From: Bacteroidota bacterium
GTDB taxonomy: Bacteria > Bacteroidota > Bacteroidia > UKL13-3
Length of the DNA stretch: 64,000 nt
NCBI GenBank assembly: GCA_947477885.1
Contig: CANJUD010000004.1
Location: 164,997-228,996 of the forward strand
Reading direction: 5' to 3'
The position numbers and the translations under genes were made by a program. The notes under the pieces are model-generated. The model saw only the letters and a program-made list of their open reading frames with translations, had not been told where the DNA came from and did no database searches. Shown piece after piece: positions 13,821 through 62,642 of the stretch. Within the stretch, counting starts at the first letter, position 1. Each line of letters begins with the position of its first letter.

Positions 13821-13858
13821 GATAGTATAAAGTATATAGTATAAGGTATATAGTAAAG
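13821..13858. repeat. heptamer tandem array (TAGTATA/AAGTATA)x5
   Basis: The 7-bp periodicity is read directly from the sequence. It is the reverse complement of the TTATACT family. Confidence 0.65.
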
Positions 13859-13950: not shown

Positions 13951-14642
13951 TTTGAATACATCCTATATTCTTTGAAATATTTAACAAGTATTTTCTCCAT
14001 AGATTTATCATGTAGTTGTGCAATTGCTAAACCCAATTCGAAAAATGAACCTTTATATGGAATTACTCTATAAACACGAGCATATTCCTTAAATGATTCA
14101 TACCCATAATGACTTTGTCTTTTTCCTTCAATAGTCCAAAATGCTCCGCGGCATGGTCCTGGTTCATAACTATCACGCATTTCTAAAGACCAAAAGTATG
14201 ATTCTAAAGATTTGATGCGTATTTTTTCCCAATCTGCCAATGTTAGAACTTTTACTATTTCTTTTGTAACGCTATCCTCACCTTCACCGGTCATCTCATC
14301 TTTTCTAACATAATATTTGGTAATAAATGTTACCTTATTATTTGAATCTTTTTCAATTCTAAATAGTACGTGTTCTGATTTGGGGTATTCATGCAAAATA
14401 AACCTAAATGTTTCTATTTTACTTGTTCTTAAATCTGGTTCGTTTAAATGTTTTAACAACCGATCAATTCTTAGGTTAAAAACAGAATCCTCTTTTAAAG
14501 CATTTCTTCTATATTTATCAATTCTTGACTCTTCAGTATTGCTGAATTTACGAATCTCTTGTTTTTCATCTGTATTATTAGTACATGAATTGATTATTAG
14601 AAGTATAACAATATATAAAGACAACAATTTAGCTAATCTCAT
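13947..14642 (-). CDS. lipoprotein, unknown function
   Basis: It has a signal peptide plus lipobox (LLIINSC) and starts at an ATG. Confidence 0.65.
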   Translation of the reverse strand: MRLAKLLSLYIVILLIINSCTNNTDEKQEIRKFSNTEESRIDKYRRNALKEDSVFNLRIDRLLKHLNEPDLRTSKIETFRFILHEYPKSEHVLFRIEKDSNNKVTFITKYYVRKDEMTGEGEDSVTKEIVKVLTLADWEKIRIKSLESYFWSLEMRDSYEPGPCRGAFWTIEGKRQSHYGYESFKEYARVYRVIPYKGSFFELGLAIAQLHDKSMEKILVKYFKEYRMYSK

Positions 14643-14705
14643 ACTTTATACCTTATACTATATACTTTCTACTTTTGTCCTTTGTCTTTCGTCTATTGTC
14701 TTTTA
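14643..14705. repeat. heptamer tandem array, 9 units (ACTTTAT x4 then TCTTTNG x4)
   Basis: It has a strict 7-bp period and fills the gap between the protease stop and the lipoprotein start. Confidence 0.65.
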
Positions 14706-30275: not shown

Positions 30276-31670
30276 TTAGTATCCCAATATCTTTAACATA
30301 CTTTCAGGGGTTTGTTCTTTATTGAACAATTTAAATGTATGTTCACCTTTTTCGTTTTTGTCTATAATAATATGTTTGGGGGCTGGTATTAAACAATGTT
30401 GAATGCCTCCATATCCTCCCAGTGATTCTTGATAAGCTCCTGTATGAAAAAATCCCATATATAATTCTTCATCATGGTGAAGTTTGGGCATGAACACTTG
30501 GTTGGTATGGCTATCACTATTATAAAAATCCTGTCCATCGCAAGTAAGTCCGCCTAGGTTGATGCGTTGAAACTCACGCTGCCAATGGTTTAAGGCAAGT
30601 AATATAAATTTCTGCCCGATGCCCCAAGTGTCAGGCAATGTAGTGATAAAACTACTGTCAATCATATACCAAAGTTCTTTATCGTTTTGCTGCTTTTGGC
30701 CAACTATTTTATATAATGTTGCACCACTCTCCCCTACTGTAAACGAACCAAACTCAGTAAATATATCTGGCTCGGGTACATCTTTTTCATCGCATATATA
30801 TTGTATAATCATTACAATCTGCTCTATCATATATTCATAATTGTGCTCAACGCCCAAACTATTATATATGGGCATACCGCCGCCAATATCAAACCAATCC
30901 AATGTATTGCACTCTTGGCGAAGGTCGCAGTATACATTTACCAAACGGGTAAGTTCACTCCAATAAAAAGTGGTATCTTTTATACCTGAGTTCACAAAAA
31001 AATGCATCATCTTTAAAGTGAATTTTGGATTATCTTTTATCTTTTGATTATATAAACGCAAAATCTTTTTGCTACTCATTCCCAATCGAGAAGTATATAC
31101 AGAGAAGTTAGGCTCTTCTTCTGTAGCTACTCTAATTCCAATCTTAATTGGAACAGGGCACATACTATCCAACAGGTCAATTTCATCGGTATTATCGAGC
31201 ACACAAACCAAATTTTCAAATCCCATTTGCACTAACTCTACCATCCCTTTTATATAGCTATCGGTTTTGTAACCATTGCATATAATCTTTTTATGGATAG
31301 GGAACCTACCATCTTTGTGCAATGACTTTATAATATCCAAATCGAATGCAGATGAAGTTTCTAAATCTACATCACTTTTAAGACATTCCTCAATAATGAA
31401 TTTGAAATGCGAACTTTTTGTACAATAACAATAATGATATTTACCTTTATATTTATGTTTCTCAATTGCCTTTGCAAACAAGTCTTTGGCAACCTGAATC
31501 TGAGAACCAATTTTTGGCAAATAAGTTAACTTCAATGGCGTACCATATTCTTTCACAATTTCCATCAAATTGAGGTCGTGAAAAAACAAGTTACCGTTTC
31601 GCACATCGTAACCGTGGCGTGGGAAGTAGAAGGTTTGCTCTACTAGATCTATATATTTGTTTTTAATCAT
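30276..31670 (-). CDS. speA: fold-type III PLP-dependent decarboxylase, likely arginine decarboxylase
   Basis: YGTPLKL sits near the N-terminus. The glycine-rich motif FDIGGGMP and the GAYQESLGG motif are typical of the Orn/DAP/Arg decarboxylase family. Substrate assignment is by family resemblance only. Confidence 0.6.
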   Translation of the reverse strand: MIKNKYIDLVEQTFYFPRHGYDVRNGNLFFHDLNLMEIVKEYGTPLKLTYLPKIGSQIQVAKDLFAKAIEKHKYKGKYHYCYCTKSSHFKFIIEECLKSDVDLETSSAFDLDIIKSLHKDGRFPIHKKIICNGYKTDSYIKGMVELVQMGFENLVCVLDNTDEIDLLDSMCPVPIKIGIRVATEEEPNFSVYTSRLGMSSKKILRLYNQKIKDNPKFTLKMMHFFVNSGIKDTTFYWSELTRLVNVYCDLRQECNTLDWFDIGGGMPIYNSLGVEHNYEYMIEQIVMIIQYICDEKDVPEPDIFTEFGSFTVGESGATLYKIVGQKQQNDKELWYMIDSSFITTLPDTWGIGQKFILLALNHWQREFQRINLGGLTCDGQDFYNSDSHTNQVFMPKLHHDEELYMGFFHTGAYQESLGGYGGIQHCLIPAPKHIIIDKNEKGEHTFKLFNKEQTPESMLKILGY

Positions 31671-31677
31671 TTTATTT

Positions 31678-31786
31678 AGTAATCAGTGGTTAGTAAACAG
31701 TAGTCAGCGTTATCCTGTTTTGCAATCAAAACAGGAAGTAAAGTAGCCGTATGGTACTGACTACTGTTAACTAACCACTGATTACT
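31678..31786. repeat. long palindromic element: 30-bp arms (AGTAATCAGTGGTTAGTAAACAGTAGTCAG) with 1 mismatch, and an inner hairpin CCTGTTTTG-caatc-AAAACAGG
   Basis: It is read directly from the sequence. It fills the 117-bp gap between the speA-like start and the nucleotidyltransferase stop. The arm sequence matches the CAGTAGT heptamer family at 59.8-62.6 kb. Confidence 0.8.
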
Positions 31787-31787
31787 A

Positions 31788-32783
31788 TTATTCATTTCCA
31801 AAATTTATTTCTGTGCTATCACCAATATTGAGACTTTGCTGTGCACCTTGGAAGGAAGCATCGTTCCCAATTAATGAATGATGAAGTATTGCATTTTCTA
31901 GATGAGAATGTGGGCCTATTATACTATCTTTTAATATCGAATATTTGATAACTGCACTATCGCCAATTGACACATAGGGACCTATAATACTATTGCTGAT
32001 TTGTGCAGTGGGGTCAATATATACAGGATGTATTATAATAGTATTTTCATAAGTTTTTGTTTCAATATTTTTTTGTCTTTTAAGTAAAGTAGAATTGGTT
32101 TCAAGCAGCATGTCTTTTTTGCCGCAATCGAACCAGTTATCAATTTCTTGTGTACGGAACTTCACGCCTGCATCTGCCATACGCATAAGTGCATCAGTGA
32201 GGTGATACTCGTTTTGTGTTTTTATTTTATTGTCGATATTATATTCTAGTGCTTCAATCAATTGGTCTGTTTCGATTATTTTATATAAACCTACCAATGC
32301 CAAATTTGATTTGGGTATATTGGGTTTCTCCACCAATTTAGAAATGAATCCTTGCCCGTCCAACTCAGCCACACCAAATGAGCGTGGGTCACTCACTTTT
32401 TTTACACCCAATAATGAGAATGGACTTTTTATAAAGGTATTTAAGTTAGTATCAAAAATAGTATCGCCTAATACAATCATCAATTCTTTGTCATTATTTA
32501 TATAATCTTTAGCCAACCAAATGGCGTAACCTATTCCTTTACCTGTAGTTTGTATAACAAATTGTGTGTTAATTTTCGGAAAGTTGTGTGTTATATATTC
32601 TTCAATTTTATCTCCCAAATATCCGATAATAAATATAAAATCATCAAAGCCCGCATCGATAAGCGGTTGTATAATATGGGCCAAAATAGGCTTGCCCGCC
32701 ACTGGTATCAGCGACTTGGGTTGTGTGTGCGTATGTGGCCTAAGCCTGCTGCCTATGCCTGCAACTGGGATTATTACCTGCAT
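31788..32783 (-). CDS. sugar-phosphate nucleotidyltransferase with C-terminal left-handed beta-helix
   Basis: The N-terminus, MQVIIPVAGIGSRLRP...PKSLIPVAGKPIL, is an NTP_transferase G-x-G-x-R motif. C-terminal hexapeptide repeats are present. Confidence 0.78.
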   Translation of the reverse strand: MQVIIPVAGIGSRLRPHTHTQPKSLIPVAGKPILAHIIQPLIDAGFDDFIFIIGYLGDKIEEYITHNFPKINTQFVIQTTGKGIGYAIWLAKDYINNDKELMIVLGDTIFDTNLNTFIKSPFSLLGVKKVSDPRSFGVAELDGQGFISKLVEKPNIPKSNLALVGLYKIIETDQLIEALEYNIDNKIKTQNEYHLTDALMRMADAGVKFRTQEIDNWFDCGKKDMLLETNSTLLKRQKNIETKTYENTIIIHPVYIDPTAQISNSIIGPYVSIGDSAVIKYSILKDSIIGPHSHLENAILHHSLIGNDASFQGAQQSLNIGDSTEINFGNE

Positions 32784-32856: not shown

Positions 32857-32940
32857 TTCATCTTTCATCTTTATACTTTATACTTTATACTATATACTTT
32901 ATACTTGCTCTCTCTCTTTTCCCTTCTCCACTCTCCTACT
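32857..32940. repeat. heptamer tandem array, 12 units (TTCATCT x2, TTATACT x5, TCTCTTT-like x5)
   Basis: The strict 7-bp period is read directly from the sequence. The array overlaps the last approximately 13 codons of tatC. Confidence 0.75.
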
Positions 32941-58512: not shown

Positions 58513-58554
58513 ATAATTAGTATAAAGACAAAAGTATAAAGTATATAGTACAAA
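58513..58554. repeat. heptamer array (TAGTATA AAGACAA AAGTATA AAGTATA TAGTACA)
   Basis: It has 7-bp periodicity and follows directly after the giant gene stop. Confidence 0.6.
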
Positions 58555-58777: not shown

Positions 58778-59836
58778 TTGCCCTACAAACGCACCAAGAG
58801 CAAGTTACACCAATGGGTGTTCAATCGACGCAATAAGATATCATTGCTACTAGCAGCTATTAGTGCTATTTTCAGGTATTATGTTTTCCCTAACCTCGAT
58901 TGGTCTTGGCATTGCGAAACCTTCATCATCATTTTCTTTGTATGGGCTATCTTATTGAATAGTGCTGCATGGGTCGAACGTTTTTTGAACTGCCATTATC
59001 CACACCAACGCAATGTGGCCAAGCGTATCGCCTTGCAGATACTGATGGGTATGTCGATTATGACTATTATACAGCTCATTTTTAATGCATTCTTTTTAAA
59101 TCACATTTTCGATTATGCCATGCAAAATCGCATGTATCCAGAATTGTTAAATCACCTTGAATATATATTTGTAACTGGAAACTTATTCTTATCGTTTGTT
59201 GTAAATTTATTATATGTAAGCGACCATTTTATCAAAGAATGGAAAACTACATTGATACATAATGAACGAATCAAAAAAGAATCGGCGATGTTGCAGTTTG
59301 AGAATCTGAAAAACCAACTAAATCCGCATTTTCTTTTTAATAGTCTTACTTCATTAAATAGTTTGATCTATGAAAACCAACAACTGGCTTCTGAGTTTTT
59401 GCAACAACTTTCGAAAGTATATAGATATTTATTGTTGCACAAAGATGATAACTTGGTAAAACTTGGAGAAGAATTACAATTTATCAATAGCTTTGTGATG
59501 CTACTCCACACCCGTTTCGACGGACAATTGCAGATAGAAATAAATGTGCCCGAAGAAGATAAACTTCTTACCATCGTACCAGTTACAACTCAAATTTTAA
59601 TTGAGAATGCTATTAAACATAATATAATATCCGCATCGAAACCATTACACATAAAAATATATACAAAAAACAAATACCTAGTAGTAGAAAATAATCTGCA
59701 ACGTAAATCCATCGTAGAAACATCTAACAAGCTCGGACTAGAAAACATGAAAAAGCTCTACCAAATTATTGCAAACAGAGACGTTGAAATTGTAGAAAAT
59801 GAGCATACTTTTGTCGTAATAGTTCCATTACAGTAA
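58778..59836 (+). CDS. LytS/YehU-family sensor histidine kinase
   Basis: The His_kinase (PF06580) motif is LKNQLNPHFLFNSLTSL, and about 4 N-terminal TM helices are present. The track start is TTG; GTG at 58817 is an alternative. Confidence 0.82.
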   Translation: MPYKRTKSKLHQWVFNRRNKISLLLAAISAIFRYYVFPNLDWSWHCETFIIIFFVWAILLNSAAWVERFLNCHYPHQRNVAKRIALQILMGMSIMTIIQLIFNAFFLNHIFDYAMQNRMYPELLNHLEYIFVTGNLFLSFVVNLLYVSDHFIKEWKTTLIHNERIKKESAMLQFENLKNQLNPHFLFNSLTSLNSLIYENQQLASEFLQQLSKVYRYLLLHKDDNLVKLGEELQFINSFVMLLHTRFDGQLQIEINVPEEDKLLTIVPVTTQILIENAIKHNIISASKPLHIKIYTKNKYLVVENNLQRKSIVETSNKLGLENMKKLYQIIANRDVEIVENEHTFVVIVPLQ

Positions 59837-60135
59837 ACAGTAGTCAGTAGTCAGTAGTCAGTAGTCAGTAGTCAGTAGTCAGTAGTCAGTAGTCAGTAGT
59901 CAGTAGTCAGTAGTCAGTAGTCAGTAGTCAGTAGTCAGTAATCAGTAGTCAGTAGTCAGTAGTCAGTAATCAGTAGTCAGTAGTCAGTAGTCAGTAGTCA
60001 GTAGTCAGTAGTCAGTAATCAGTAGTCAGTAGTCAGTAATCAGTGCCATACGGCAGATACTTCGCTACTACCAATTACTGCTCACTAAAAAATGTGCGTT
60101 AGCTACTGACAACTGTTTACTGACTACTGCTCACT
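59837..60135. repeat. (CAGTAGT)n array of about 30 units (59837-60044) followed by inverted-orientation ACTGAC-type units (60076-60135), forming a long imperfect palindrome
   Basis: It is read directly from the sequence. It begins at the first base after the HK stop codon. Confidence 0.9.
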
Positions 60136-60139
60136 AAAT

Positions 60140-60178
60140 ATGAAAATAATAAATGGCTTCATCAAATCACTAAAATAA
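60140..60178 (+). pseudogene. 13-codon relic (MKIINGFIKSLK*) of a four-helix-bundle gene
   Basis: It joins the start and end of gene 62082-62429 across an AAAATWATAAA direct repeat. It is followed by ctaacccctaaaaaatcaGGCGTCAGCCactgactactg. Confidence 0.7.
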
Positions 60179-60241
60179 CTAACCCCTAAAAAATCAGGCG
60201 TCAGCCACTGACTACTGATTACTGACCACTGTTTACTAAAT

Positions 60242-60280
60242 ATGAAAATAATAAATGGCTTCATCAAATCAATAAAATAA
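60242..60280 (+). pseudogene. second relic (MKIINGFIKSIK*)
   Basis: It has the same architecture as 60140-60178 and is followed by the same 60-bp tail. Confidence 0.7.
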
Positions 60281-60342
60281 CTAACCCCTAAAAAATCAGG
60301 CGTCAGCCACTGACTACTGACCACTGACCACTGTTTACTACC

Positions 60343-61107
60343 ATGATTAAAACCCTAATAATAGAAGACGAACCCTTAGTAGCTAAGGACTTAATGCATC
60401 AGTTAAAAAAACTGAACGAGGAAATTGAAATTATCACAACGCTGAGCAGCACTGCTGAGGCAATAGAATGGTTTCAAAATAACCCACAGCCCGATTTGAT
60501 ATTTATGGATATACAATTGAGCGACGGTGTAAGCTTCGACATTTTGAAAGCTGTGAAAGTAACCGCTCCTATCATTTTCACTACGGCTTACGACCAATAT
60601 GCAATCCAAGCGTTTAAACATAATAGTATTGATTATTTGTTAAAACCTATTGATGCGGAAGAACTTCAACATGCCTTCGATCAGTATAATATATATATAT
60701 CTGAGAGCGGTGATTTTACTGTAAAAATAAAAGGTTTATTGGCTAAGCTGAGTGAGGCTGCAGGCAAATATAAAGAACGTTTTATGGTGCAAACCCGAAA
60801 TACGCTCATGCCAGTCCCGGCTAGTGATATCGCTTATTTTTCAAAAGAAGAATTAATATATATATATACCAAAGAAAACCAACGCTATCTCTCGGAGAAT
60901 AATAGCATGGAAGAACTTGAGGAGTTTTGCGATCCTAAATTATTTTACCGGGCTAACAGGCAAGTAATTATTAATGTGGATATGATAGAACGTGTAAAAA
61001 GTAGCTATAACGGAAAACTATTGGCAGTGCTCAAACCGCCCTTTGCTATGGAGATAGACATAAGCCGCGAGAAAGCATCTGATTTTAAAGAATGGCTCGA
61101 TTCGTAG
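60343..61107 (+). CDS. LytR/AlgR-family response regulator (receiver + LytTR DNA-binding domain)
   Basis: The receiver domain has the phospho-acceptor Asp in LIFMDIQLSDG and the conserved Lys in YLLKP. The C-terminal LytTR domain reads FFRANRQVIINVDMI. The ATG follows the repeat immediately. Confidence 0.88.
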   Translation: MIKTLIIEDEPLVAKDLMHQLKKLNEEIEIITTLSSTAEAIEWFQNNPQPDLIFMDIQLSDGVSFDILKAVKVTAPIIFTTAYDQYAIQAFKHNSIDYLLKPIDAEELQHAFDQYNIYISESGDFTVKIKGLLAKLSEAAGKYKERFMVQTRNTLMPVPASDIAYFSKEELIYIYTKENQRYLSENNSMEELEEFCDPKLFYRANRQVIINVDMIERVKSSYNGKLLAVLKPPFAMEIDISREKASDFKEWLDS

Positions 61108-61229
61108 AATTACGAATTGCGAATTGCGAACTGGCTAACGCCTGATTCATATACTGCCTGTGGTTGTGTCTTTTGACCAACCACACTTTTAGCCACTATT
61201 CGTAATTTTTAATTCGTAATTCGTAATTA
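61101..61229. repeat. palindromic heptamer element: (ATTACGA/ATTGCGA)x3 ... inner hairpin TGTGGTTG-n11-CAACCACA ... (ATTCGTA)x4
   Basis: It is read directly from the sequence. It overlaps the RR stop codon. Confidence 0.75.
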
Positions 61230-61255: not shown

Positions 61256-61825
61256 ATGGCAACTAAAATATATACAAAGACCGGAGACAAAGGCAGCACA
61301 GGACTTATAGGCGGCAAGCGTGTTTCCAAATCGCATGAGCGGATTGAGGCTTATGGCACTGTAGATGAACTTAATTCATACTTAGGATTGGTAAGTGATG
61401 CCATTACTATTGATAGCAAAAAAGAAGAACTAAAATATATCCAAGACCGCTTGTTTACGGTTGGTTCTAACTTGGCTTGCGACGATGAAAATGCCAAAAT
61501 GATTCTCCCCGACCTCACTGAAAATGATATAACACTTCTCGAAAAATACATCGACCAAATGGATACAGAATTGGAACCTCTCAAAAACTTTATTATACCC
61601 GGCGGACATATACATATATCATACTGCCACATTGCACGCTGCGTGTGCCGCAGGGCCGAGCGACTCTGTGTGCAACTAATGGAGCATAGTTTTGTGCCAC
61701 CGCTTATTATACAATATTTAAATAGATTGAGCGATTATCTATTTGCTTTATCACGTTATATAGGGAAGCATTTGGGAGTAGCAGAGATTGTATGGGAACC
61801 GAGAAAAGTAAACAGTAGTCAGTAG
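61256..61825 (+). CDS. PduO-type ATP:cob(I)alamin adenosyltransferase
   Basis: MATKIYTKTGDKGSTGL...ERIEAYGTVDELNS is the MMAB/PduO N-terminal signature. The last 6 codons (KVNSSQ) are encoded by the following heptamer array. Confidence 0.82.
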   Translation: MATKIYTKTGDKGSTGLIGGKRVSKSHERIEAYGTVDELNSYLGLVSDAITIDSKKEELKYIQDRLFTVGSNLACDDENAKMILPDLTENDITLLEKYIDQMDTELEPLKNFIIPGGHIHISYCHIARCVCRRAERLCVQLMEHSFVPPLIIQYLNRLSDYLFALSRYIGKHLGVAEIVWEPRKVNSSQ

Positions 61826-62081
61826 TCAGTAAACAGTAGTCAGTAAACAGTAGTCAGTAAACAGTAGTCAGTAAACAGTAGTCAGTAAACAGTAGTCAGT
61901 AAGCAGTAGTCAGTAAACAGTAGTCAGTAAGCAGTAGTCAGTAAGCAGTAGTCAGTAAGCAGTAGTCAGTAAGCAGTAGTCAGTAAGCATTAGTCAGTAA
62001 ACAGTAGTCAGTAATCAGTAATCAGTTTGCTGACGCCGAATGGCACTGACTACTGTTTACTGACTACTGACCACTAAAATT
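61808..62081. repeat. (AAACAGTAGTCAGT)n 14-bp (2x7) tandem array of about 16 units, then GCTGACGCC anchor in inverted orientation and ACTGAC-type units up to the next ATG
   Basis: It is read directly from the sequence. Confidence 0.9.
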
Positions 62082-62429
62082 ATGAAAATTATAAAATTTG
62101 AAGATATTATAGCTTGGCAAAAATCACAAGATTTTGCTGTAGAAATATATAGTTCATTTAAAGAATCAAAAGATTGGGATTTTAGAAATCAAATTTGCAG
62201 AGCGACGGTTTCTATTTCAAACAATATTGCCGAAGGTTTTGACAGAAGCTCTAATGCTGACTTTAAAAGGTTTCTTTATATGTCGTTAGCCTCATGCAGT
62301 GAAGTGAAATCCATGCTAATTTTAGCAAAACGCCTTGAATATTTAAATGAGAAAACAAGTAAAACCTTAATATTGCAATCGGAAGAAATTTCTAAAATAA
62401 TAAATGGCTTCATCAAATCACTAAAATAA
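62082..62429 (+). CDS. four-helix-bundle protein (TIGR02436 / PF05635, 23S-rRNA-intervening-sequence protein family; Avd-like)
   Basis: MKIIKFEDIIAWQKSQDFAVEIYSSF...NNIAEGFDRSS..DFKRFLYMSLASCSEVKSMLILAKRLEYL...KIINGFIKSLK matches the family consensus (EDLxVWQKA...NIAEGFGR...FL.IA.GSL.E......LA..L.YI). Confidence 0.85.
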   Translation: MKIIKFEDIIAWQKSQDFAVEIYSSFKESKDWDFRNQICRATVSISNNIAEGFDRSSNADFKRFLYMSLASCSEVKSMLILAKRLEYLNEKTSKTLILQSEEISKIINGFIKSLK

Positions 62430-62642
62430 CTAACCACTAAAAAGCACGCGTAAGCCACTGACTACTGTTTACTGACCACTGTTTACTAAATATGAAAATA
62501 ATAAATGGCTTCATCAAATCACTAAAATAACTAACCCCTAAAAAATCAGGCGTCAGCCACTGACTACTGACTACTGTTTACTGACCAATGACCACTAAAA
62601 AGCACGCGTAAGCCACTGACTACTGTTTACTGTCTACTAATT
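62430..62642. repeat. repeat tail units (CTAACCNCTAAAAAgcaCGCGTaAGCCACTGACTACTGTTTACTGACCACTG) x3 with an embedded relic mini-ORF
   Basis: It is read directly from the sequence. The last unit ends 2 nt before the ispG ATG. Confidence 0.8.
62492..62530 (+). pseudogene. third relic mini-ORF (MKIINGFIKSLK*)
   Basis: It is identical to the relic at 60140-60178. Confidence 0.7.

Follow-up and report, generated by a model that had tools for sequence, protein, structure and literature searches.

What role, if any, does a long and almost perfect palindrome have in the narrow space between two genes of the same strand, and how did it come to be there? The question was raised by a 64,000-nt stretch of DNA (the window) from a Bacteroidota bacterium of the UKL13-3 lineage (GCA_947477885.1, contig CANJUD010000004.1, positions 164,997 to 228,996). 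In this window, the 117-nt intercistronic gap (31671-31787) between a sugar-1-phosphate nucleotidyltransferase gene and a downstream Orn/Arg decarboxylase-fold gene was completely taken up by a palindromic element, as a sequence-only reading of the DNA had stated and as the coordinates of the flanking open reading frames (ORFs) bore out. The element is a gene-less member of a palindrome family whose arms consist of tandem CAGTNNN heptamers, and it represents one instance of a known but unexplained repeat class. The interpretation ranked first, with a probability of about one half, is that of a selfish or neutral palindrome resembling the intervening sequences (IVS) of rRNA, co-transcribed with its neighbors and probably tolerated or processed as a long double-stranded RNA (dsRNA) stem.

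Structure, transcription, and conservation of the palindrome

The whole element measured 111 bp, with ends at 31677 and 31787, and comprised an inverted repeat of two 31-nt arms (31677-31707 and 31757-31787) that paired at 30 of 31 positions (97% complementary) across a spacing of 49 nt. On the plus strand the left arm, which is the 3' arm of the minus-strand transcript, was made of the units TAGTAAT, CAGTGGT, TAGTAAA, and CAGTAGT followed by CAG, and the right arm, the 5' arm of that transcript, mirrored it at all positions except one. Each arm held four YAGTNNN units; the variable-triplet positions were complementary at 11 of 12 sites, the core positions were paired at 19 of 19, and even the rare TAGT variants were mirrored. 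The 30-mer given as the arm in the sequence-only reading matched 31678-31707 on the plus strand with no mismatch and 31757-31786 on the minus strand with one, and the 49-nt loop that it described agreed with the computed spacing (31708-31756). A second, perfect hairpin reported inside this loop was also recovered as TCCTGTTTTG-CAAT-CAAAACAGGA (31713-31722 and 31727-31736, 4-nt loop), although its stem was 10 bp long and not 8 bp as claimed. This inner hairpin occurred once in the window and was weakly conserved in a relative. Toward the other end of the loop lay an apex motif, GCCGTATGGT (31746-31755, plus strand), adjoining the ACTG-type arm. On its 5' side the base of the stem was 1 nt from the TAA of the upstream gene (31788-31790), and on its 3' side it was 7 nt from the ATG of the downstream gene (31668-31670). 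The element is not an assembly artefact, since 260 nt around it were identical across four independent assemblies and a diverged ortholog was present in a relative.

Folding of the coding (minus) strand as RNA gave -61.5 kcal/mol compared to -21.8 +/- 3.4 for shuffled sequences (z = -11.7), in keeping with the stable structure proposed earlier, and the DNA folds of the two strands had energies of -39.6 and -38.6 kcal/mol (z about -12). Rfam 15 returned no match in the window at gathering thresholds, rRNA included, and at permissive thresholds the region 31400-32000 yielded only generic sub-threshold hairpins (microRNA precursors, about 21-23 bits).

The upstream gene (31788-32783, minus strand) encodes NTP_transferase and hexapeptide domains, the latter forming the C-terminus, and the downstream gene (30276-31670, minus strand) encodes an Orn_Arg_deC_N domain and has homologs named arginine decarboxylase by their sources. 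A very stable hairpin directly 3' of a stop codon could act as an intrinsic terminator or a strong pause site separating the two genes, a role that the sequence-only reading had put forward. An intrinsic terminator requires a G+C-rich stem followed by a U-tract, but on the transcribed strand the stem continued into AAAUAAAAUG and lacked a U-tract. In addition, a scan for consensus terminators gave no terminator-like site at the element, no promoter box of the Bacteroidota type (TAnnTTTG) occurred within 330 nt upstream of the decarboxylase ATG (109 boxes in the whole window), and members of the family are often found directly 5' of start codons inside operons. Termination or pausing at this site was therefore considered very improbable. 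As neither a promoter box nor a terminator was present at the element, the decarboxylase gene seems to rely on read-through across it, and the element is probably co-transcribed within a nucleotidyltransferase-decarboxylase mRNA.

Examination of the orthologous region, a check suggested together with the sequence-only reading, revealed the element in decayed form in a relative with a 93% identical decarboxylase (L121, L122), at the same place within the same gene order and in a gap of 125 nt. The relative's element (L122) had the apex GCCATTCGGC, with which the apex motif of the window element was counted as shared, and each of its arms was about 78% identical to the window arm (counted by hand from the alignment). 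Between the two elements, two paired positions of the arms had changed in a compensatory manner and about ten of about 14 differences were uncompensated, according to the alignment read by hand. The presence of the element at the same place in both lineages makes it older than their split, and a near-perfect palindrome appears to have been kept, or regained, in one lineage and to have decayed in the other. Decarboxylase homologs at 73-75% identity (P0002, P0003, P0005, P0006) had other neighbors, including MaoC, thrS, and an arginase-family gene, such that the element coincides with a synteny break. An empty orthologous junction was not obtained among these homologs, where synteny was lost, and the sole syntenic relative carried the element. 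In relatives of the same 73-75% identity (including L124, L126, and L150), the decarboxylase gene was twice divergent from an arginase-family gene.

The heptamer family within and beyond the window

Comparison of the arm with the remainder of the window revealed a family of related arrays. The arm 30-mer had 10 window matches at up to three mismatches compared to 0 expected, including 60208-60237 and 62458-62487, and a 17-mer of the arm had 58 matches against 0.15 expected. Outside the element, all arm k-mer matches fell in two regions (59831-60340 and 61806-62640), and the best of the other arm matches differed by 2-3 mismatches and in the order of the units. These results supported the earlier statements that the arm sequence is common to the tails at 60.2-62.6 kb and that the element and the arrays at 59.8-62.6 kb have their heptamer units in common. 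Arrays of CAGT units comprised 30 copies at 59.8 kb and 15 copies at 61.8 kb, and the longest local inverted repeats in the window all belonged to the CAGT-heptamer family.

The first sibling locus (59831-60340, plus strand) lay between genes for a histidine kinase and a LytTR response regulator. Its (CAGTAGT)x30 array began on the kinase stop codon; next came a short hairpin at the apex (GCCATACGGC) and then arms of the ACTG type and 102-bp modules, the locus ending 2 nt before the ATG of the regulator. The second locus (61806-62640, plus strand) separated a cobalamin adenosyltransferase gene, whose stop codon was provided by a 14-mer CAGT array, from ispG; the array was followed by the apex GCTGACGCCGAATGGC, an ACTG arm, a four-helix-bundle gene (62082-62429; 115 amino acids, TIGR02436 / PF05635), and further ACTG-arm modules reaching the ispG ATG (62643). 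The apex motif GCCGTATGGT recurred in both siblings, at 60045-60054 and 62035-62044. The 102-bp modules were tandemly arranged (60085-60340 and 62400-62640; loci L138-L141), each composed of an ACTG arm, a 12-amino-acid ORF (MKIINGFIKSLK*), and GGCGTCAGCC. In this 12-codon ORF the opening codons of the four-helix-bundle gene run directly into its closing ones, which makes the ORF a deletion derivative of that gene. Across assemblies from different samples, the copy number of the module 5' of the LytTR gene was three, at least four, or five.

Mirroring of the arms unit by unit and sharing of the apex motif across loci and genomes indicate that arm-apex-arm is a copied unit, at least in this group of freshwater Bacteroidota. 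The apex motif was shared by the three window loci, the ortholog in the relative (L122), a Chitinophagaceae locus (L017), and lake-metagenome loci (L129-L135). A metagenome scan for the apex-plus-arm pattern found 10 loci, all with different arms and loops, and the motif was present in about 8 of these 10 lake-metagenome loci, two of them resembling chance matches. In arm complementarity, the window element tied for the top among 51 hairpins. Some form of propagation is likely because the arm-apex-arm arrangement recurs elsewhere and because, in further Bacteroidota, a cargo gene is found between arms of this kind. In one of the lake loci (L129, reverse strand, about 2450-2700), two apex motifs in inverted orientation (GCCATTCGGC ... 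GCCGTATGGT) bracketed an insert of 150 nt, and this insert had its own perfect inner hairpin (AACTTTTGGAAAGTTTAAAACTTTCCAAAAGTT) resembling that of the window element.

A scan of one genome per species of the Genome Taxonomy Database (GTDB) with a 24-nt arm pattern returned at least 116 stretches, so that 116 or more species, spread over about a dozen phyla, have the motif in their genomes. Among the matches listed, to which the following counts of loci refer, and with phyla assigned approximately by record title, there were about 32 loci in Chloroflexota, about 28 in Bacteroidota, about 23 in Acidobacteriota, 8 in Planctomycetota, and 6 in Cyanobacteria. Further groups with the motif included Poribacteria, Desulfobacterota, Zixibacteria, the PVC group, Chlorobiota/Ignavibacteria, Patescibacteria, Bacillota, and Binatia. 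The GC content of the loci ranged from 36 to 69% and so base composition does not explain the motif. In nearly all cases the arrays were intergenic.

The order of the arrays was fixed. In the 93 loci with enough flanking sequence on both sides, and with an array counted as complementary at 18 or more of 24 positions, a CAGT-type array lay 5' of an ACTG-type array 39 times and the reverse order was never seen (0/93). The outer array end fell on a gene boundary or within about 20 nt of it: 26 of 33 arrays with a start codon as nearest neighbor ended no more than 20 nt away, as did 36 of the 48 nearest to the stop codon of a reverse-strand gene, and 13 of these 36 stops were inside the repeat. 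About half of the array loci were single-armed, such arrays abutting one gene and typically standing about 100 nt from the other. At the mRNA level, units of the CAGU type come after stop codons and those of the ACUG type before start codons; at the DNA level, the motif is always directed away from the adjoining coding sequence. The gene orientations around 50 hairpins included 20 co-directional stop-to-start bridges, 7 convergent pairs, and 3 divergent pairs, and the element under study is a typical stop-to-start bridge. Viral contigs (IMG/VR) gave two matches (L142 and L143, around 620-1000), both near-identical GC-rich entries in which a hairpin between two genes had the order stop, CAGT arm, loop, ACTG arm, Shine-Dalgarno sequence, and ATG. 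Phage carriage was rejected as an account of the family, as only these two near-identical entries matched.

Comparison with rRNA intervening sequences and rival explanations

The closest architectural parallel was found in the 23S rRNA IVS of Coxiella and Leptospira. The terminal stem of the Coxiella IVS is 28 bp long and is interrupted by one mismatch and a bulge; the loop contains an ORF for the four-helix-bundle protein S23p, and tandem heptamers (GACAGAT) that vary between strains lie just 5' of the ORF start. RNase III cuts the stem internally, and the 5' processing site falls at the first heptamer (PMC4990558). The palindromes described here share with the IVS the terminal inverted repeats, a stem of some 28-31 bp that is interrupted by one mismatch, tandem heptamers just 5' of the ORF start that vary between strains, and, in sibling loci L031, L144, L147, and L149, the same protein family in the loop. 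Both may be regarded as selfish and tolerated through RNA processing, which for the element is proposed by analogy. They differ in that the IVS occupies helix 25 or 45 of 23S rRNA whereas the element lies between protein-coding genes, in mRNA; a subset of IVS carries the S23p ORF in the loop but the window element has no ORF; and the heptamer unit is CAGTNNN in the element compared to GACAGAT in Coxiella (PMC4990558).

Evidence for gene-bearing counterparts came from homologs of the four-helix-bundle protein of the window. Four of these (71-75% identity, on long contigs of other Bacteroidota) were each encoded between co-directional operon genes, namely DUF6428 and Metallophos, an Ada-like gene and a 2OG-Fe(II) oxygenase (AlkB-like), and, found twice, MoaE and MoaC. 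Cassettes were delimited in loci picked as homologs of the window gene (L144, 1094-1665; L146, 1546-1620; L147, 1097-1585; L149, 1115-1596) and in one added locus (L031, 2215-2670). The order in L144, L147, and L149 was upstream stop, CAGT-type array, four-helix-bundle gene, ACTG-type array, and next start; L146 had an ACTG-type array on the downstream side alone and no CAGT arm; L031 held the gene inside a 359-nt loop; and in a further locus (L100) CAGT arrays stood on both sides of the gene. In the predicted folds of L031 (z = -2.4) and L144 (z = -5.7), the two arrays formed a terminal stem closing the whole cassette. Many contigs with the four-helix-bundle gene were shorter than 2 kb, as expected if it is flanked by repeats.

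Under the IVS-like interpretation, the 31-bp stem would form in the polycistronic nucleotidyltransferase-decarboxylase mRNA and would behave like an rRNA IVS stem, that is, as a long dsRNA that RNase III can cut. Even uncut, such a stem would bring the upstream stop and the downstream start together, making the insertion cheap for the host. The element would then be mainly selfish or neutral DNA and not a regulator kept by the host, and its copies could have originated by inverted duplication with 7-nt slippage, by recombination between arrays, or through some enzyme.

Several observations weigh against this interpretation. The two arms of the relative with the 93% identical decarboxylase paired at just 72% and its element folded at -26.5 kcal/mol as RNA (z = -1.8), so the structure has not been maintained there. 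Among the mismatches of the 20 co-directional hairpins, G·U was not enriched on the sense strand (28 vs 36, a test of low power), and so nothing indicates that RNA pairing is under selection. The loop of the element held no remnant of a four-helix-bundle gene, its similarity not rising above shuffled controls, and derivation of the loop from that gene was rejected. Among the matches listed, the gene was detected in 2 of 116 array loci, both from Bacteroidota, by a local hidden Markov model (HMM) and the NIAEG motif, the HMM being built from close sequences such that distant family members could be missed; an obligatory partnership of gene and array was rejected on this count. The link with the cargo gene may accordingly be lineage-specific or secondary, the gene landing in pre-existing hairpins. 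Finally, the variable positions of 50 hairpins were complementary at 67% compared to 53% +/- 1% when arms were shuffled between loci, a modest family-wide excess that may partly reflect genome-specific unit preferences and the choice of the best pairing register, and many of the hairpins could be two independent arrays. The decay in the relative and the missing G·U excess at the same time suggest that the host does not depend on the element, and it is for this reason that the selfish or neutral IVS-like palindrome was ranked first, followed in order by slippage arrays, a host regulator, a mobile DNA element, and the terminator discussed above.

The possible, though not favored, explanation next in rank is that heptamer arrays arise incidentally by 7-nt slippage at each gene boundary, pointing away from the coding sequence, and form an inverted repeat without a role, and not as a propagated unit, wherever both boundaries of a gap acquire one. 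The many single-armed loci abutting one gene, the modest arm complementarity and ragged array ends of the family, the other period-7 arrays at gene boundaries in the window, and the variation of the 102-bp module between samples are all consistent with such dynamics, as is the report that no other long simple-sequence repeats of bacteria are as common as heptamers (Mrazek, 2007, as cited in PMC4679880). Slippage does not predict arms that correspond unit for unit, rare TAGT variants included, or the recurrence of the apex motif, attached to the ACTG arm, at further loci and in genomes besides this one, and alone it explains neither one CAGT core across phyla of 36-69% GC nor the seeding of an array in an ancestral gap that was perhaps about 1 nt long. 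Selection by the host for an intercistronic RNA element was judged rather improbable. Such an element would set the ratio in which the two genes are expressed, either by affecting the processing and stability of the mRNA or by linking termination at the end of the first ORF with initiation at the second. Such a function would fit the very stable stem, the proximity of stop and start to its base, and the two compensatory changes, and it has precedents in a role in translation proposed for ACTG-type repeats directly 5' of start codons in Beggiatoaceae (PMC4679880) and in the altered reporter output upon deletion of a heptamer repeat in Nostoc (bioRxiv 10.1101/2022.06.06.494920). It is at odds with the decayed structure of the relative, the predominance of uncompensated arm differences, the lack of a sense-strand G·U bias, and the occurrence of family members between unrelated gene pairs in all gene orientations.

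Still less probable was a DNA-level mobile element, either a miniature inverted-repeat transposable element (MITE), as proposed in the sequence-only reading, or a REPIN-like hairpin, that a transposase from another genomic locus would move in trans. The 31-nt terminal inverted repeats, the intergenic position, and a length of 111 bp within the usual range of about 100-400 bp are those of a MITE, and the element was flanked by a 5-bp direct repeat, TTATT, such that TAA-A-ATG would remain if the element were removed together with one TTATT copy. A structure-specific enzyme could also lie behind the strict arm polarity, and the spread of the motif over many phyla together with the two viral entries would suit a mobile element. 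Against this, the TTATT repeat was the sole such case among 49 family hairpins, and a flanking direct repeat of at least 3 nt was absent in 41 of 49 hairpins compared to 93 of 98 in the null, so there is no target-site duplication of fixed length across the family. Array ends were ragged and the termini not defined; within the window, the inner-hairpin part of the loop and the element as a whole each occurred once, and the 10 metagenome matches differed in arms and loops where a MITE should have multiple near-identical full-length copies. No transposase or integrase was present among the nine flanking genes scanned for domains, the other ORFs of the window not being scanned, and an empty site was not found at the 75% identity level where synteny was lost.

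A broader extension of the IVS-like interpretation posits a pan-bacterial IVS-like cassette, an 'operon intervening sequence', that would exist without a gene, as the CAGT-heptamer palindromes, and in a gene-bearing form encoding the four-helix-bundle '23S rRNA IVS protein'. Such a cassette would settle exactly between stop and start, its stem would be removed or neutralized by RNase III so that the insertion remains phenotypically silent, and the four-helix-bundle protein or another enzyme would recognize the arms. Recognition of the arms in this way would explain why their polarity is fixed and why the same 7-mer is found in genomes whose GC content ranges from 36 to 69%. This extension is held to be doubtful. 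If the stems are indeed RNase III substrates, these elements would be natural cistron separators and the tolerance of insertions in tightly packed operons would be explained.

Known repeat classes and other heptamer arrays

The heptamers most similar to those of the element are the TAACTGA direct repeats, reported in Beggiatoaceae, 15 Cyanobacteria, and 5 Bacteroidetes, mostly just 5' of start codons and with unknown function (MacGregor, 2015; PMC4679880). In the BOGUAY genome, 169 direct sets were recorded and one indirect set (PMC4679880). The two classes are alike in the 7-nt unit, the ACTG/CAGT core (TAACTGA being ACTGATA in another phase), the intergenic location, 'forward' copies a few nt 5' of start codons, length steps of 7 nt, and a patchy cross-phylum spread. 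The element accordingly showed the features of the TAACTGA class, with tandem 7-nt units of CAGT/ACTG core, an ACTG arm 7 nt before an ATG, and relatives in Bacteroidota and Cyanobacteria. The TAACTGA repeats are nearly all direct, in contrast to the pair of arrays described here, which together make up an almost perfect palindrome and have an apex motif. In the literature searched, the arm polarity rule, the stop-codon anchoring, and the link with a four-helix-bundle gene were not found described, nor was the occurrence in Chloroflexota, Acidobacteriota, and Planctomycetota, and the exact repeat strings retrieved nothing relevant. The short tandemly repeated repetitive (STRR) sequences of cyanobacteria presumably belong to the same CAGT-core heptamer class. 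Heptamer repeats such as STRR and TAACTGA and the four-helix-bundle 'IVS protein' family have each stood for decades without a function, and they are connected by this locus and its relatives. The family offers rules in the form of a fixed arm polarity, stop and start anchoring, and a cassette architecture matching rRNA IVS. There are also practical consequences, as the arrays break short-read assemblies, leaving many four-helix-bundle genes on contigs of less than 2 kb, and array-supplied stop codons shift annotated gene ends.

Other intergenic palindromes offer functional comparisons. The Correia/NEMIS elements of Neisseria and the ERIC sequences of enterobacteria are intergenic palindromic repeats of about 100-150 bp that are co-transcribed with their neighbors, and their inverted ends fold into long RNA hairpins that are cut by RNases, altering mRNA stability. 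They have a conserved full-length consensus and many near-identical copies, with a TA target duplication in the case of Correia, in contrast to the variable heptamer arms, ragged ends, and lack of a family target duplication seen here. Correia and ERIC are the nearest functional analogues of the element. REP, BIME, and REPIN sequences are extragenic palindromes, often inverted doublets forming hairpins, that occur after stop codons and between operon genes and are mobilized by REP-associated tyrosine transposases (RAYT). REP elements are single imperfect palindromes of 20-40 nt, genome-specific and tied to a RAYT gene, whereas the motif of the element is cross-phylum with tandem-heptamer arms and no RAYT was present among the nine flanking genes scanned for domains. 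An integron attC site was rejected, as the outer ends TAGTAAT ... ATTACTA do not match the core sites (RYYYAAC ... GTTRRRY).

Arrays of unrelated heptamers accompanied the family. About half of the tandem-repeat rows of the window had a period of 7 or 14, and other period-7 arrays were located at 32869-32906, 13822-13855, 14641-14704, 58519-58554, 61107-61130, and 61198-61228, with the units CTTTATA, AGTATAA, ATACTTT, CTTTTGT, GAATTGC, and ATTCGTA, on or beside stop and start codons. One such array overlapped the TatC stop codon just 5' of the nucleotidyltransferase gene. That 7-nt repeats are favored at such sites by some general process is suggested by several phyla in which ACTG arrays directly adjoined arrays of unrelated heptamers (L008, L018, L020, L021, L034, and L088), with the units GGCTTGG, TCCATCG, GGTAGCA, CACCTGA, GGTGAGA, and CAACCCA.

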